DNA of 64,000 nucleotides, taken from NCBI GenBank assembly GCA_016871815.1, contig VHBT01000003.1, positions 14,317 through 78,316 on the forward strand, read 5' to 3'. A program made the position numbers and the translations under genes. Below are positions 53,789 to 57,550 of this stretch, piece after piece. This DNA comes from Candidatus Babelota bacterium. Lineage in GTDB: Bacteria; Babelota; Babeliae; Babelales; GCA-2401785. Position 1 is the first letter of the stretch. Each line of letters opens with the position of its first letter. The notes beneath the pieces are model-generated. The model saw only the letters and a program-made list of their open reading frames with translations. It was not told where the DNA came from and made no database searches.

Positions 53789-56700
53789 ATGATGACATTA
53801 AAATCTTTTTTGTTTACTGTACTTTGTTTTTCCATAACCAGCACTTCAATAAAACCAGACCTGATCGATGATGTATACAATAATCCTGGAACATGTACTG
53901 CTGGTATTGTATTTTTAGTTTCCGCATATAAAAACCTCACCAACCCATCTCTCTCTCGGTCTGGAATTGCGAAAATTACAACAATGCTTACATCTGGAGG
54001 ATATCTTGCTTACAAATACAAAAAAATCTTAGAACTTATTTTTTTTCTGGATGTCAAACTCAGGCTGCTAGGTGTTCCTTCAAAAAACATTCCTCCTCTC
54101 AAAAGAATTCTTAAACGAATTAATCAATTTGAACGCGACACATTGCTAAAACATTTAAAAAGTTTTCCATTCAACCCAAATCCCCAAGATACGCTCTACA
54201 GCGATAATGCTAACGTCAGAGAAGCACTCGAAAAAAATAGTTTCTTTTCGCAAGATTGCGTCAATCAAGTTGTAAACACTCTTGCCCTTAACGAAAAACT
54301 CTCCCTGGAAGAACGAAGAACGCTCATTCTTACAACCCCTCGATCTCACCCTGCTGGAAAAATCGCCAAAGAAATCGCAAAAGCTCTTGGTAAACCATAC
54401 ATCGTTATTAATTTTGCCAAAGACATGTGGCGTTCATCTCTTCTTGGCAGACCCGACATGGGATTTGGAGAACATGGACGATTATTTGAAGCATTTGCAA
54501 AAGCAGGTACCGAATCATGTGTGCTTATTTTCAAAAATATACACGTACTCTCAGAAGATGAAGTAACAGCTCTCATAAACTGCTGCACAAAAAAAACAAC
54601 CCCTGTAATTGATCGCAGCACCGAAATCGAAATTCCCTTTAAACATGCACTTTCGATAATCATTAATGAAAAAAATAAACTTTCGGACACTTTTTTCTTT
54701 CAATACAACGATTTTTTCAAAAACATTTTAGTACGCGAATACTCCGATCAGGAACGCACCGGCATCATTCAAAGCATCATAATTCCAGAACTTATCACCC
54801 TGTACTCACTGCCGGAATTTATCGAAAAAACATTATACGAATCAACTCCAGCTCTCGTTGAACTATGGAAAAAAACAAATCAGTCGTTTAAAAATTGCAA
54901 ACGAATTATTCGAAAAATAACATTTGATTACATTCTTAATCCTGAAAAAAAATCTCTTTCCGAAGACGAGCTTGCTTGGTATTTCAAAGAACAAGAAACC
55001 ATCGAAGACTACACCTCGCCAGAAATTCCAGAGCACTTTCAGAAATCAATTAAAATTAAACTTTCTGATGCACTTGCCAACGGGAACCTGTATAAACACT
55101 ACATCGAACAATATCCATTCAAAAAAGAACAAATCCCGGCTATTAAAAAAGAATCCGCAAAAAAAATCTTACGCCAAAATATTGTTGGGATGAAAAAAAC
55201 ACAGCAAGAAATGCTTACCCTGCTCATTGCAAACTCAATTTCAACACCTGAGCACAAAAAAGCTATTTGCTTTGTGGGTCTTGCGGGCACCGGAAAAACT
55301 CACTGCGCTCAAGCACTCGCCGACGCAACGCTCAGACAGTCATTTCTTATCGATTTTTCAAGCATCGCAAATCTTCCTGGTGACCCAACCAACGTTGCAG
55401 GCGCAGAACCAAGTGATTTCTTTAAAGCATTTTGCACCACTCAATCACGAGCACCGGCAATTATTCTTGATAACATCGACAAAGCAAGCAAGATTAACTT
55501 GCTCTTTATGGAAAAAGCCTTAAATCCCCATAAAAATTTTGCGTACCCCGATCAATTTTCTGGATTTGAAATGGATCTTTCGAATGTTTTTTTTATCGCA
55601 ACCGCAAAAGACTTGTCAGAAATTCCTTCATCAATGCTTCAATACATGGAAATTATCAACCTGGAAGGCTACTCGTTTGAAGAAAAAATTAATATCGCAG
55701 AAAAAAAATTATTACCAAGCGCAATCTCAAGCAGATACCTCAGTAACTCAAACGCCGCTGATATTTATTGCGAAATAGCTGCATGCATCACAGAAATTTG
55801 TTCAATTGTAGCTCCGTCAGAAAAAGGATTAAATCAGCTAAGCAGAGCAATCAATTCGCTCGTGCTTCAAGAAGTTGTAAGCCTCTTTACAAACAACACA
55901 ACGCTCAACCTTACTCCGGACAATCTACGCTCATTCATTCCACCGGTACTCAGTGCGTATACACTCAACCCCGCAGAAGATATCACCGCATATTGCAATG
56001 ATGTCATAAAAAGTCTTGATATCACACCCGAACAATTCAAAAAAATCGAAAATCACATTATCGCTCTTAAACCATGGCGAGGGGGAAATTCAATCACCTT
56101 GCTCTACATGGAATGGATTCGTAAATTTCCCTTCAACAAATACGCAAATGAACAAAAGTCTCTCGAATTTGCACGCAACCAACTTGATAAAACACACTTT
56201 GGACTCCAGCAAGTAAAAAATCTCATTTTAGATTTTTTAGCAGGGTCATTTGTTGCTGCCGAAACAACCATCAGTAAAAATATTTGTTTTATTGGTGGAC
56301 CGGGCATCGGAAAAACTACCTTTGCTGAATCAATCGCAAAAGCGCTCAATAGACCCTTTGTACGCATTCCAATCGAATCGATCAAAAGTCTGACTGGAGT
56401 TATCGGAGAACATGAAATGTTTGGTGAAGGGCCAGGAGCTATCGGAAAAGCATTGTGCACAACCGAATGCTTAAACCCTGTAATTTTGCTCGACGAAATC
56501 GATAAAGCATGTCCAAATGTGCAATATCAATTACTGGAAATTCTCGATCCTGCACAAAATAAAACCATTAAAGATGGCTTTTTGGGGCTTGATATCGATG
56601 CATCAAAAATTTTATTCATCGCTTCTGCCAACGATCTTTCGAGTCTTTCGCACGCATTGCGCGATCGCTTACACAAAATCGAACTCTCACCATACGGAAA

Positions 56701-57550
56701 AGCAGAACGTGTTGGAATTGCCCAAAACATGATTGTCCCTGACATCATAAAAGAATTTAAATTTAATGCCGAAGTTGCAGGCCATCTGTATGGCATGATC
56801 GACGACTTGGTAGAAACAACACTCATCACCGAATATGGCGTACGTAACCTCAAACGATTCTTGTACATCGCAGCAAACAAATATGCGCGATTAATTATCG
56901 AGAAAAAACCACTCACCAGGCTTTCGGTCGTAGACATACTCAAAGACCAATATCCAGATCTTTTGCAACTCAAAAACGATCCTGCTGCAATTCCAGCAAC
57001 CGTTCCGCTTATTGGTGTGGTAAATGGCATGTGCGCTGGCAGATCCGATGGTGGGGGGCTTCACAAAACACAAGCCTCAATTATCCCTGGTGGCAGTGGC
57101 AACCTTATTAAAAATGAACTTGGTGGCCAAACAGCCCAGGCATCACAAGTACAATCACTCATGTTTATTAAAAATTTTGCAGAAAAATATCAGATCAATC
57201 GTGAATTACTTTCAACATCTGATTTTGCAATTATCAAACAACATTACGAAGAATTTGATGGCCCTTCTGCAGGAATCGCACAAACAGTTGCGCTCATTTC
57301 TGCTCTCACCAAACGTGCGGTAAAACCTGGATATGCCGTCACCGGGGCAATCGATGCACTGGGCAACTTACTCCCCGTCGGTGGATACCGAGAAAAAATT
57401 TTGGGCACCGCACGCACGGGAATTACCAATTTCATCGTCCCAGAATGCGCCCGGGAAACGATGGAAGCGCTCAAACAACAATTTACTGGACTTACCATTA
57501 TTTTGGTAAAAACAATCGATGAAGCCCTAGATATCTTGCTCGAGAAATAA
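53789..57550 (+). CDS. Membrane-anchored Lon-like protease with three tandem Lon AAA+-type modules (first degenerate, second Walker-B-defective, third canonical) and one S16 protease domain
   Basis: 1253 aa. Module 1 has the P-loop position TPRSHPAGKI (~54333-54365) and the Walker B position LIFKNIHV. Module 2 has GLAGTGKTH (55277-55303), Walker B IILDNIDK (Asn codon 55472-55474) and QYM in place of DRM. Module 3 has GGPGIGKTT (56294-56320), ILLDEIDK, LDPAQNKTIKDGFL and ALRDRL. The protease has FDGPSAG (Ser codon 57266-57268) and GGYREK, with Lys at +43. Confidence 0.9.
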   Translation: MMTLKSFLFTVLCFSITSTSIKPDLIDDVYNNPGTCTAGIVFLVSAYKNLTNPSLSRSGIAKITTMLTSGGYLAYKYKKILELIFFLDVKLRLLGVPSKNIPPLKRILKRINQFERDTLLKHLKSFPFNPNPQDTLYSDNANVREALEKNSFFSQDCVNQVVNTLALNEKLSLEERRTLILTTPRSHPAGKIAKEIAKALGKPYIVINFAKDMWRSSLLGRPDMGFGEHGRLFEAFAKAGTESCVLIFKNIHVLSEDEVTALINCCTKKTTPVIDRSTEIEIPFKHALSIIINEKNKLSDTFFFQYNDFFKNILVREYSDQERTGIIQSIIIPELITLYSLPEFIEKTLYESTPALVELWKKTNQSFKNCKRIIRKITFDYILNPEKKSLSEDELAWYFKEQETIEDYTSPEIPEHFQKSIKIKLSDALANGNLYKHYIEQYPFKKEQIPAIKKESAKKILRQNIVGMKKTQQEMLTLLIANSISTPEHKKAICFVGLAGTGKTHCAQALADATLRQSFLIDFSSIANLPGDPTNVAGAEPSDFFKAFCTTQSRAPAIILDNIDKASKINLLFMEKALNPHKNFAYPDQFSGFEMDLSNVFFIATAKDLSEIPSSMLQYMEIINLEGYSFEEKINIAEKKLLPSAISSRYLSNSNAADIYCEIAACITEICSIVAPSEKGLNQLSRAINSLVLQEVVSLFTNNTTLNLTPDNLRSFIPPVLSAYTLNPAEDITAYCNDVIKSLDITPEQFKKIENHIIALKPWRGGNSITLLYMEWIRKFPFNKYANEQKSLEFARNQLDKTHFGLQQVKNLILDFLAGSFVAAETTISKNICFIGGPGIGKTTFAESIAKALNRPFVRIPIESIKSLTGVIGEHEMFGEGPGAIGKALCTTECLNPVILLDEIDKACPNVQYQLLEILDPAQNKTIKDGFLGLDIDASKILFIASANDLSSLSHALRDRLHKIELSPYGKAERVGIAQNMIVPDIIKEFKFNAEVAGHLYGMIDDLVETTLITEYGVRNLKRFLYIAANKYARLIIEKKPLTRLSVVDILKDQYPDLLQLKNDPAAIPATVPLIGVVNGMCAGRSDGGGLHKTQASIIPGGSGNLIKNELGGQTAQASQVQSLMFIKNFAEKYQINRELLSTSDFAIIKQHYEEFDGPSAGIAQTVALISALTKRAVKPGYAVTGAIDALGNLLPVGGYREKILGTARTGITNFIVPECARETMEALKQQFTGLTIILVKTIDEALDILLEK

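Follow-up and report, generated by a model that had tools for sequence, protein, structure and literature searches.

A three-module Lon-like protein of a Dependentiae bacterium with graded degeneration of its AAA+ modules

The three-module gene and its protein

The gene described in this article lies on contig VHBT01000003.1 of the Candidatus Babelota assembly GCA_016871815.1, within a stretch of 64,000 nucleotides (nt; positions 14,317 to 78,316 of the forward strand) that is referred to as the window and is numbered from its first letter. At 53789..57550 on the plus strand, an uninterrupted open reading frame (ORF) without internal stop encodes a Lon-like protein of 1253 amino acids (aa), which is 100% identical to MBM3894213.1. 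That entry is deposited as "AAA family ATPase [Candidatus Dependentiae bacterium]", which places the source in the host-dependent phylum Dependentiae (TM6). Starting at its N terminus, the protein consists of a hydrophobic leader, three Lon-type AAA+ modules, and an A-type Lon protease domain. An initial annotation of this DNA had placed three Lon modules ahead of a protease in the 1253-aa ORF, and the ORF, the hidden Markov models (HMMs), and the alignments all agree with this layout. A pseudogene or an assembly chimera is ruled out because the ORF is intact, with no frameshift found, and because five independent assemblies share the same architecture of about 1190–1290 aa.

The N-terminal region (aa 1–111, 53789..54121) was delimited by hydropathy, has no Pfam match, and lacks PF02190. 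It is followed by module 1 (aa 112–406, 54122..55006), a degenerate Lon AAA+ module or pseudo-ATPase recognized by blastp, HMM, and PDB profile searches as well as by AlphaFold2 and Foldseek; by module 2 (aa 427–731, 55067..55981), delimited by Pfam and motif alignments; and, after a connector (55982..56083) marked by its conservation over five orthologues, by module 3 (aa 766–1057, 56084..56959), a canonical Lon AAA+ module according to its motifs and model superposition. The A-type Lon protease domain (aa 1073–1253, 57005..57547), identified by Pfam Lon_C and by its Ser-Lys dyad, forms the C terminus. Pfam assigns AAA domains to the protein at approximately aa 490–620 and 832–966 and Lon_C at aa 1073–1252, and no domain in residues 1–480. 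In an AlphaFold2 model of aa 95–1253, with a mean predicted local distance difference test (pLDDT) score of 85.5, all three modules show the same β-α-β core and helical lid. The segment after the lid of each module resembles the lid-to-protease connector of LonA.

The positions of the functional motifs were set from published Lon residues (PMC7239648) together with a MAFFT alignment of the eight Lon-type modules of the window and an HMM alignment. The reference residues are Walker A 356-GPPGVGKTS-364, the pore-loop Y398, Walker B D423/E424, the sensor-1 N473, the Arg finger R484, which acts in trans, and the sensor-2 R542, which acts in cis (PMC7239648). The total of eight modules had been counted correctly in the initial annotation; one each is found in the canonical LonA, in an AAA-only protein, and in a 586-aa paralogue, two in a 910-aa paralogue, and three in the protein described here. 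All motif strings quoted there are likewise present at the logical positions given for them.

Module 3 has the complete set of motifs. Its Walker A reads GGPGIGKT (aa 836–843, with K842), its Walker B ILLDEIDK (aa 899–906, with D902-E903), and its Arg finger RDRL (aa 958–961, with R960); the pore-loop aromatic is F878, sensor-1 is N948, and sensor-2 is R1019. In the protease domain (Lon_C, E=1.7e-25, aa 1073–1252), the dyad is formed by Ser1160 in DGPSAG and Lys1203 at S+43, and it is present in all five orthologues, that is, the window protein and four relatives introduced below. The context of the catalytic Ser reads EEFDGPSAGIAQ, which is A-type with Pro before Ser; the A-type context is PKDGPSA (PMC9569914, PMC2605481). 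Both the Ser-Lys dyad with 42 residues in between and an AAA+ module with a complete motif set (Walker A/B, sensor-1, Arg finger, and sensor-2) immediately ahead of the protease are hallmarks of the Lon family (MEROPS S16), and the early description of module 3 and the protease as canonical is borne out. The connector and the start of module 3 (aa 731–790) are the best-conserved linker of the protein, being 37% invariant over the five orthologues. This connector resembles the helical collar (NTD3H) of LonA, ending in a '...W...PF/PW' motif; in LonA, NTD3H forms a collar above the ATPase ring (PMC7239648).

Module 2 is degenerate in a selective manner. Walker A is intact (GLAGTGKT, aa 497–504, 55277..55300), and Walker B reads IILDNIDK (aa 558–565, 55460..55483), with D561-N562, so that Asn occupies the position of the catalytic Glu. 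The Arg-finger position (aa 617–620) reads LQYM, with Y619 replacing the Arg. Furthermore, the sensor-1 Asn is replaced by K607, the sensor-2 Arg by N682, and the aromatic Tyr of pore loop 1 by N535. The intact P-loop, the exchange of Glu for Asn, and the loss of the Arg finger had been recognized in the initial annotation; its list was too short, as sensor-1, sensor-2, and the pore aromatic are lost as well. Its equation of the Glu-to-Asn exchange with the classical trap mutation needs correction, since the classical trap is Glu to Gln. In Yersinia pestis Lon, the E424Q mutation slows hydrolysis by 90% (PMC7239648).

Module 1 is, by its sequence relationships, a real but degenerate Lon AAA+ module. 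Its Lon-like AAA+ fold had been suggested from the letters of the DNA, and an HMM built without module 1, a profile search of the PDB, and Foldseek all agree on it. In blastp, aa 111–440 align collinearly over approximately 285 residues with the seven other modules of the window at 20–26% identity, and module 3 is the best partner (E=4e-9). The HMM made from these seven modules, with module 1 excluded, matches aa 112–406 with E=6.9e-19 and the corresponding regions of the orthologues with E=2e-18 to 9e-33. A module 1 profile from the five orthologues was compared with all PDB sequences, and the 32 best matches are all Lon (E=1.2e-21 to 1.7e-09), including yeast PIM1 (1.2e-21), human LONP1 (9e-20), Escherichia coli Lon (1.4e-18), and Bacillus subtilis LonA (4e-16). 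The alignments to Lon span profile positions 10–290, and other AAA+ families are absent from the match list of this search. A profile from two sequences gave weak matches (E=0.007), the decisive signal appearing only with five orthologues; in Pfam, the best match of module 1 is AAA_5 with 19.2 bits, under the cut-off of 22.

An AlphaFold2 model of module 1, made with three orthologues only, has a pLDDT of 62.7 and shows the AAA+ order of strands and helices as well as a four-helix lid. Compared with the PDB by Foldseek, the model retrieves Lon in its first 44 places (E=3.5e-7, probability 1.00) and ClpA, NorQ, and dynein after them. The template modeling (TM) scores are low (approximately 0.41); therefore, the fold class is supported rather than a precise model. 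Within the full-length model, 10-residue blocks of module 1 reach a mean pLDDT of 70–93. The canonical motifs of the nucleotide site are lost. The Walker A position (aa 183–192, 54335..54364) reads TPRSHPAGKI, with no P-loop glycines and with Ala at the Lys position; the Walker B position (aa 245–253, 54521..54547) reads VLIFKNIHV, with K249-N250 where Asp-Glu is expected; and the Arg-finger position (54707..54718) reads NDFF. In the alignment, sensor-1 and sensor-2 are not recognizable and there is no clear pore-loop aromatic.

The N-terminal region ahead of module 1 contains a signal-peptide-like hydrophobic stretch at approximately aa 6–20, a weaker one at approximately aa 35–48, and an amphipathic helix. 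The absence of the Lon N domain, as noted initially, is confirmed by the Pfam and NCBIfam scores; the leader found in its place had gone unmentioned. All four noncanonical paralogues start in this signal-peptide-like, hydrophobic manner and are without the LonA N domain. A second transmembrane segment after the leader is clear in the 586- and 910-aa proteins and in the collected proteins P0079, P0091, and P0159, and weak in the three-module protein.

Orthologues and the lon gene array

The five-orthologue set consists of the window protein and the proteins P0002, P0185, P0076, and P0184. They were obtained by searching exhaustively with HMMER for matches to the module 1 profile and from two word-indexed searches; the protein searches behind the test of DN conservation were unbiased. 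P0002 (1228 aa) is 71% identical to the window protein, a distance at which synonymous sites would be saturated, P0076 (1228 aa) is approximately 32% identical to it over modules 1 and 2, and P0185 (1290 aa) is 41% identical to P0076. P0184 has 1193 aa as called, and its ORF in L002 (9893..13582) extends to 1229 aa with a leader. Herein, the start given in the database is an internal Met, and the ORF runs 36 codons upstream to an ATG; the extended N terminus is signal-like and reads MTCFKKAQWLLLCTAFVSLSL. The called start of P0002 may likewise be too short.

The gradient of degeneration is shared by all members of this set. Module 3 is canonical in all five, pore-loop Phe included. In module 2, the P-loop is intact in each orthologue, and Asn is found at the catalytic-Glu position in five of five (DN in four, EN in one), which upholds the substitution anticipated from the window protein. 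The remaining positions of module 2 vary without returning to the canonical residue: sensor-1 reads K/K/K/T/A, the Arg finger Y/H/H/H/Q, and sensor-2 N/H/H/H/N, and the pore-loop aromatic is absent throughout. Thus, the loss of the finger Arg is general, although the string 'QYM' quoted in the initial annotation is itself not conserved. In module 1, the P-loop region is degenerate in every orthologue and differs between lineages, and the Walker B pair reads KN/KN/TN/KN/NN. The rate of change follows the same order. The share of positions invariant in all five proteins is 7% in module 1, 21% in module 2, 40% in module 3, and 45% in the protease, and the identity to P0002 is 54, 68, 87, and 86%, respectively. 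Between orthologues, the identity of module 1 falls to about 20%.

In a neighbor-joining (NJ) tree of 39 modules with 200 bootstraps, the orthologous modules sort by their position in the chain, the clades of modules 1, 2, and 3 having bootstrap values of 99, 88, and 95%, respectively, and the internal topology is identical across the three clades. Therefore, the three-module architecture and its gradient are older than the split of these lineages. A grouping of module 1 with module 2 has a bootstrap of only 60%, both being long branches. The initial annotation had named comparison with orthologues as the check on strain-specific decay; the substitutions are kept and the clades are congruent, which favors retention under selection. 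The other refuting conditions named there likewise turned out in favor of the annotation. This pattern of conservation speaks against both neutral decay and an artefact of assembly.

A scan of genome contigs with the alignment of modules 1 and 2, in which one of the two patterns contained the DN motif, found one locus, L001. This contig (JBEITS010000045.1, 7.7 kb) is the sole GTDB-representative contig with an orthologue and is labeled as a metagenome-assembled genome of a 'Campylobacterota bacterium'. On it, a 586-aa ORF, assigned by length alone to the position of the one-module paralogue, directly precedes the three-module gene; this gene pair matches the Dependentiae array described next. 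L001 may be a mis-binned contig.

In the window, the three-module gene is the last of five Lon-family genes that lie in a row on the plus strand at 45403..57550. The first is the canonical LonA (45403..47856, 817 aa), which has one module, is recognized by Pfam and by TIGR00763 (872 bits against a cut-off of 608), and contains PF02190 (E=4e-31). A strong hairpin follows it at 47864..47900; hence, the paralogues are probably transcribed apart from canonical lon. Between canonical lon and the one-module paralogue lies the AAA-only Lon-type protein (47919..49049, 376 aa), whose single module has all ATPase motifs and a canonical pore loop (RTYVG), preceded by a hydrophobic leader and with no protease domain. 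It is kept at this position in three other contigs (365–408 aa) and may act as an unfoldase ring in its own right or as an upper tier that can detach. The one-module paralogue (49180..50940, 586 aa) consists of a leader, a transmembrane segment, an AAA+ module, and the protease, and the two-module paralogue (50955..53687, 910 aa) keeps all catalytic motifs in both modules.

The order of the array is an ABC ATPase on the minus strand, LonA, the AAA-only protein, the one- and/or two-module paralogues, and the three-module protein. Order and orientation are conserved in at least four Dependentiae-like contigs, with middle members gained or lost: one contig has no two-module gene, and another has no one-module gene. 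Apart from the lon paralogues and the ABC ATPase, the three-module gene is surrounded by housekeeping genes. An assignment to anti-phage defense was rejected, the PADLOC matches being weak or confined to single domains (BrxL matches the protease with 24 bits, and DolB and IetA match the P-loop region).

Downstream of the array, a GC-rich palindrome of 22 nt, GGGCCCGGATTTCTCCGGGCCC, occurs twice (57576..57597 and 58157..58178), where no repeat is expected by chance. Each copy lies just past the 3′ end of a minus-strand gene, the first 26 nt after the stop of the three-module gene, and the palindrome looks like a reused terminator hairpin. On the minus strand at 58207..61500, a protein of 1097 aa is encoded, which has a signal-like leader, a transmembrane segment near aa 160–185, Arg/Glu/Ala-rich repeats, and two dual-specificity phosphatase domains, as well as a weak, subthreshold match to a RanBP2-type zinc finger (E=0.005). 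A 1024-aa counterpart holds the same position beside P0002. The 1097-aa protein looks like a candidate host-directed effector. Upstream of the array, two tandem plus-strand genes (35464..38508 and 38519..42238) encode very large proteins of 1014 and 1239 aa in which a MutS domain V ATPase at the C terminus is all that can be recognized. They are preceded by a HerA-like (DUF87) ATPase at 33698..35308.

Proposed architecture and its alternatives

We lean toward the reading that the gene encodes a functional Lon-family protease, conserved in a clade of Dependentiae, which would assemble as a hexamer of four stacked rings in the order module 1, module 2, module 3, and protease, with module 3 as the sole motor. 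With all catalytic residues and an aromatic pore loop at its disposal, module 3 would feed the substrate into the Ser-Lys chamber. The motifs of module 2 make binding of ATP or ADP without turnover most likely, and the module could serve as a static assembly ring and channel. Module 1 is predicted to stay free of nucleotide and to form an AAA+-shaped scaffold at the channel entrance; its fast evolution would fit a platform for the recognition of substrates or partners, or a spacer in place of the LonA N domain that the protein lacks. Membrane tethering of the entry face is the probable role of the hydrophobic leader. Of the interpretation in the initial annotation, the structural part is supported; the functional part, in which the tiers would regulate or dock substrates and may compensate for the N domain, is plausible.

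The argument for stacking starts from the Arg finger. Since the finger acts in trans, and since that of module 3 is, like all of its cis residues, strongly conserved whereas modules 1 and 2 have lost theirs, the sites of module 3 can be completed by module 3 neighbors alone. This calls for a homomeric module 3 ring and, hence, for stacking. In addition, stacking is supported by the finding that a pre-AAA helix with a PF/PW end is present in every module and that family members with one, two, and three modules all end in the same protease domain. The role proposed for module 2 may be likened to that of the D2 ring of NSF and the D1 ring of p97, which bind ATP, show little hydrolysis, and hold the hexamer together. 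NSF consists of two stacked rings, of which the D2 ring is six-fold symmetric in all states (PMC6160233). In LonA, the pre-AAA helix sits axially above the ATPase ring (PMC7239648).

Several observations weigh against this proposal. The full-length AlphaFold2 model has a predicted TM-score (pTM) of 0.44, so its inter-module geometry is unreliable; Foldseek with the full model matched module 3 and the protease alone, and no two-tier AAA+ structure is among its 50 best matches. P0184 has EN instead of DN in module 2 and EE instead of DE in module 3; therefore, the motif logic is not absolute. P0076 retains an Arg at the finger position of module 1 (QNRV). To our knowledge, the Walker B exchange of Glu for Asn has never been tested in Lon. 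Finally, P0076 and P0184 start with what resembles a cleavable Sec signal and show no second transmembrane segment, which would put an ATP-dependent machine outside the cytoplasm and is at odds with a simple membrane tether.

The last point leads to the alternative that survives best, even if we regard it as unlikely: the Lon paralogues would be exported, host-directed proteases that act in the host cytosol, where ATP is available, and their extra tiers would recognize host targets. This fits the signal-peptide-like leaders on all four noncanonical paralogues and on the orthologues, with P0076 and the corrected P0184 being without a second transmembrane segment, and it fits the conserved neighbor, the 1097-aa dual-specificity phosphatase protein with a leader of its own. 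It is opposed by the second transmembrane segment of the 586- and 910-aa paralogues, P0079, P0091, and P0159, which predicts a hairpin anchor with a cytoplasmic catalytic part, and we know of no precedent for the export of a 140-kDa, hexamer-forming AAA+ protein. M41 peptidases, the FtsH family, are membrane-anchored. For the Dependentiae isolate Chromulinavorax destructans, signal peptides are predicted in 44% of the coding sequences and secreted proteases were proposed as effectors, yet in the same study lon is placed among the cytoplasmic proteases and M41 among the 'secreted' ones (PMC6561590). Therefore, such predictions over-call export. Were the leaders truly export signals, the paralogues would be the first case of a parasite delivering ATP-dependent proteases of the Lon type to its host.

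It is improbable that modules 1 and 2 are functionless, decaying duplicates and that the protein works with one ring like any other Lon, its long N-terminal extension being inert. Module 1 is indeed fast-evolving (7% invariant; 20–26% identity to the distant orthologues), its P-loop region is not conserved, and Pfam gives it no above-threshold match. However, both modules are full-length and foldable in five lineages in which module 3 itself is only 55–87% identical, and the HMM E-values of module 1 amount to 1e-20 to 1e-35. In module 2, a P-loop that is perfect in all five orthologues stands beside five catalytic positions that are noncanonical in all five, a selective rather than random pattern. 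Moreover, approximately 2 kb of coding sequence has been kept without deletions or frameshifts.

Equally doubtful is a co-assembly of the paralogues into mixed or docked complexes, in which modules 1 and 2 would be interfaces for partner rings instead of homomeric tiers. The conserved order and orientation of the array in four contigs would agree with it, as would the AAA-only protein with every ATPase motif and no protease. By blastp, the AAA-only module best matches module 1 of the 910-aa paralogue (E=1e-46), which is its partner in the NJ tree as well, with a bootstrap below 60%; module 2 of the three-module protein is in blastp also closest to this distal module. The composition of the array varies between contigs, though, which speaks against an obligate, fixed complex.

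Lastly, the modules could lie side by side, with two chains closing one six-module ring that would have two live, two binding-only, and two dead sites and two protease domains. Rings built from concatenated AAA+ modules are known from dynein and midasin, in dynein with graded degeneration of the sites, and a dynein motor is among the weaker Foldseek matches of module 1 (rank 48). This arrangement is very improbable, since the module 3 site would face a finger-less neighbor (NDFF, LQYM) even though R960 and the other catalytic residues are kept in five of five orthologues, since Lon protease domains function as six-membered chambers (PMC9569914), since the one- and two-module paralogues share the protease domain and would need different stoichiometries, and since each module has its own axial pre-AAA helix.

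Comparison with known systems and wider distribution

Compared with LonA, module 3 and the protease together form a LonA-type unit with all ATPase motifs, DGPSAG, and the same Ser-Lys spacing. The model of this unit superposes on E. coli Lon (6u5z) with a target-normalized TM-score of 0.83 and on B. subtilis LonA (3m6a) with one of 0.84, and modules 1 and 2 are closest to LonA modules as well. Unlike LonA, the protein has a hydrophobic leader instead of PF02190 and three AAA+ modules instead of one; it scores 425 bits against the cut-off of 608 in TIGR00763, covering profile positions 256–794 only. Module 3 has a pore loop that is shorter by two residues, with Phe replacing Tyr. According to a 2022 review of the Lon subfamilies, a Lon chain consists of one ATPase domain followed by one protease domain (PMC9569914). 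With its three modules, the protein departs from this scheme of one ATPase domain per chain in subfamilies A, B, C, and BA.

LonBA (the 'LonB' of B. subtilis) and archaeal LonB are membrane-associated Lon forms in which, as in the protein, the N domain of LonA is absent. LonBA begins with a hydrophobic helix, which is followed by one hybrid ATPase domain and an A-like protease domain (PMC9569914). The 586-aa paralogue shares this layout, and the three-module protein, with its hydrophobic leader and its extra tiers, resembles it. Both LonBA and LonB have a single AAA+ module as opposed to three. Furthermore, LonB carries its anchor as an insertion that separates Walker A from Walker B and has the Ser context (E/D)GDSA(S/T), whereas no module of the protein contains such an insertion and its Ser context is DGPSAG. 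The NCBIfam LonB models give 55–71 bits against cut-offs of 517–723; membership in LonB was rejected (TIGR00764, 71 vs. 517), and the score of the spore LonB model (TIGR02902, 55 vs. 723) speaks against LonBA. LonC of Meiothermus taiwanensis (PMC3391209, PMC13069640) likewise retains an ATPase-dead, AAA-like module as a structural or chaperone ring. However, LonC has only this dead module, with a helical hairpin extension, and no live motor, whereas the protein described here keeps a canonical motor beneath two degenerate tiers. Membership in LonC was rejected because TIGR02903 gives 62 bits against a cut-off of 679 and because a canonical module 3 is present.

The two-ring (type II) AAA+ machines, with NSF D2, p97 D1, and Pex1/Pex6 D1 as examples of their passive tiers, share the tandem arrangement of AAA+ modules in one chain, of which the protein has three. 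In these machines, the passive tier binds nucleotide with little or no hydrolysis and serves assembly, and its pore loops are without the aromatic. They differ in belonging to other AAA+ clades, in having no fused protease, and in that none of them is three-tiered. In the three-module protein, in contrast, the predicted motor sits next to the protease, and the tiers taken to be passive lie farther from it.

The initial annotation treated the protein as singular, which does not hold: multi-module Lon-like proteins, some of them with degenerate modules, occur in many other lineages. Altogether, 53 proteins with at least two Lon-type modules were collected, several redundant close members of one cluster included. 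P0159 has three near-canonical modules; P0108, also annotated as Candidatus Dependentiae, has three modules; P0121 is a multi-module Lon-like protein of 1370 aa; and P0078 and P0083 combine a LonA-like N-terminal region with two modules. Distal modules are degenerate in P0060, P0103, P0130, P0135, and P0139, proximal ones in P0088 and in module 2 of P0079. In the first module of P0060, GRS-CGCG stands for Walker A and IFKNID at Walker B, and P0103 reads ILENLD, ATAK, and LDQF. The KN at Walker B that P0060 and module 1 of the window protein have in common may be convergent. The P0060 cluster is an unrelated, abundant two-module Lon-like family (1025–1040 aa, 216 member sequences, from ENA and Logan metagenomes).

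Like the protein described here, P0159, P0108, P0121, P0078, P0060, P0088, and P0103 carry two or three modules before a Lon protease; unlike it, they arose by independent duplications, and most keep all modules catalytic. The independence follows from the NJ tree, in which, for example, P0077 has its two modules paired at 100% support and P0108 has its three modules in one group. A single duplication at the origin of all multi-module Lons was therefore rejected. Among the proteins collected, the gradient from pseudo-ATPase over apparently binding-only to active module is found only in the five-member clade that holds the window protein. In a literature search for multi-AAA+ Lon and for Lon in Dependentiae, no description was found, most subscription journals being outside its coverage.

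What would be new is a Lon whose AAA+ tiers stand in tandem and grade, in a conserved manner, from dead over apparently binding-only to active. The principle is not new, as degenerate tiers are already familiar from other AAA+ machines, and the surprise is moderate rather than fundamental. As a broader and more tentative proposal, an unrecognized class of Lon proteases with two or three stacked tiers might have evolved several times, with a graded machine set, from an AAA-only ring to proteases of one, two, and three tiers, encoded by the array of one Dependentiae clade and the number of tiers acting as a ruler for substrates. If so, the passive tiers of the three-tier form would lengthen the channel that leads from a membrane-facing entry to the single motor, and only substrates with long free tails, or those handed over by a partner of module 1, would reach the motor.

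The protein would offer a natural dissection of AAA+ features, in which the dead module stands for scaffolding, the binding-only module for nucleotide-dependent assembly, and the live module for translocation; in ordinary Lon, such questions have been approached through engineered mutants. The multi-ring solution of ClpA/B, NSF, and p97 would have arisen inside the Lon family too, and repeatedly. For the Dependentiae, which are host-dependent and poorly known bacteria, the finding points to an expanded membrane-associated or exported proteolysis.

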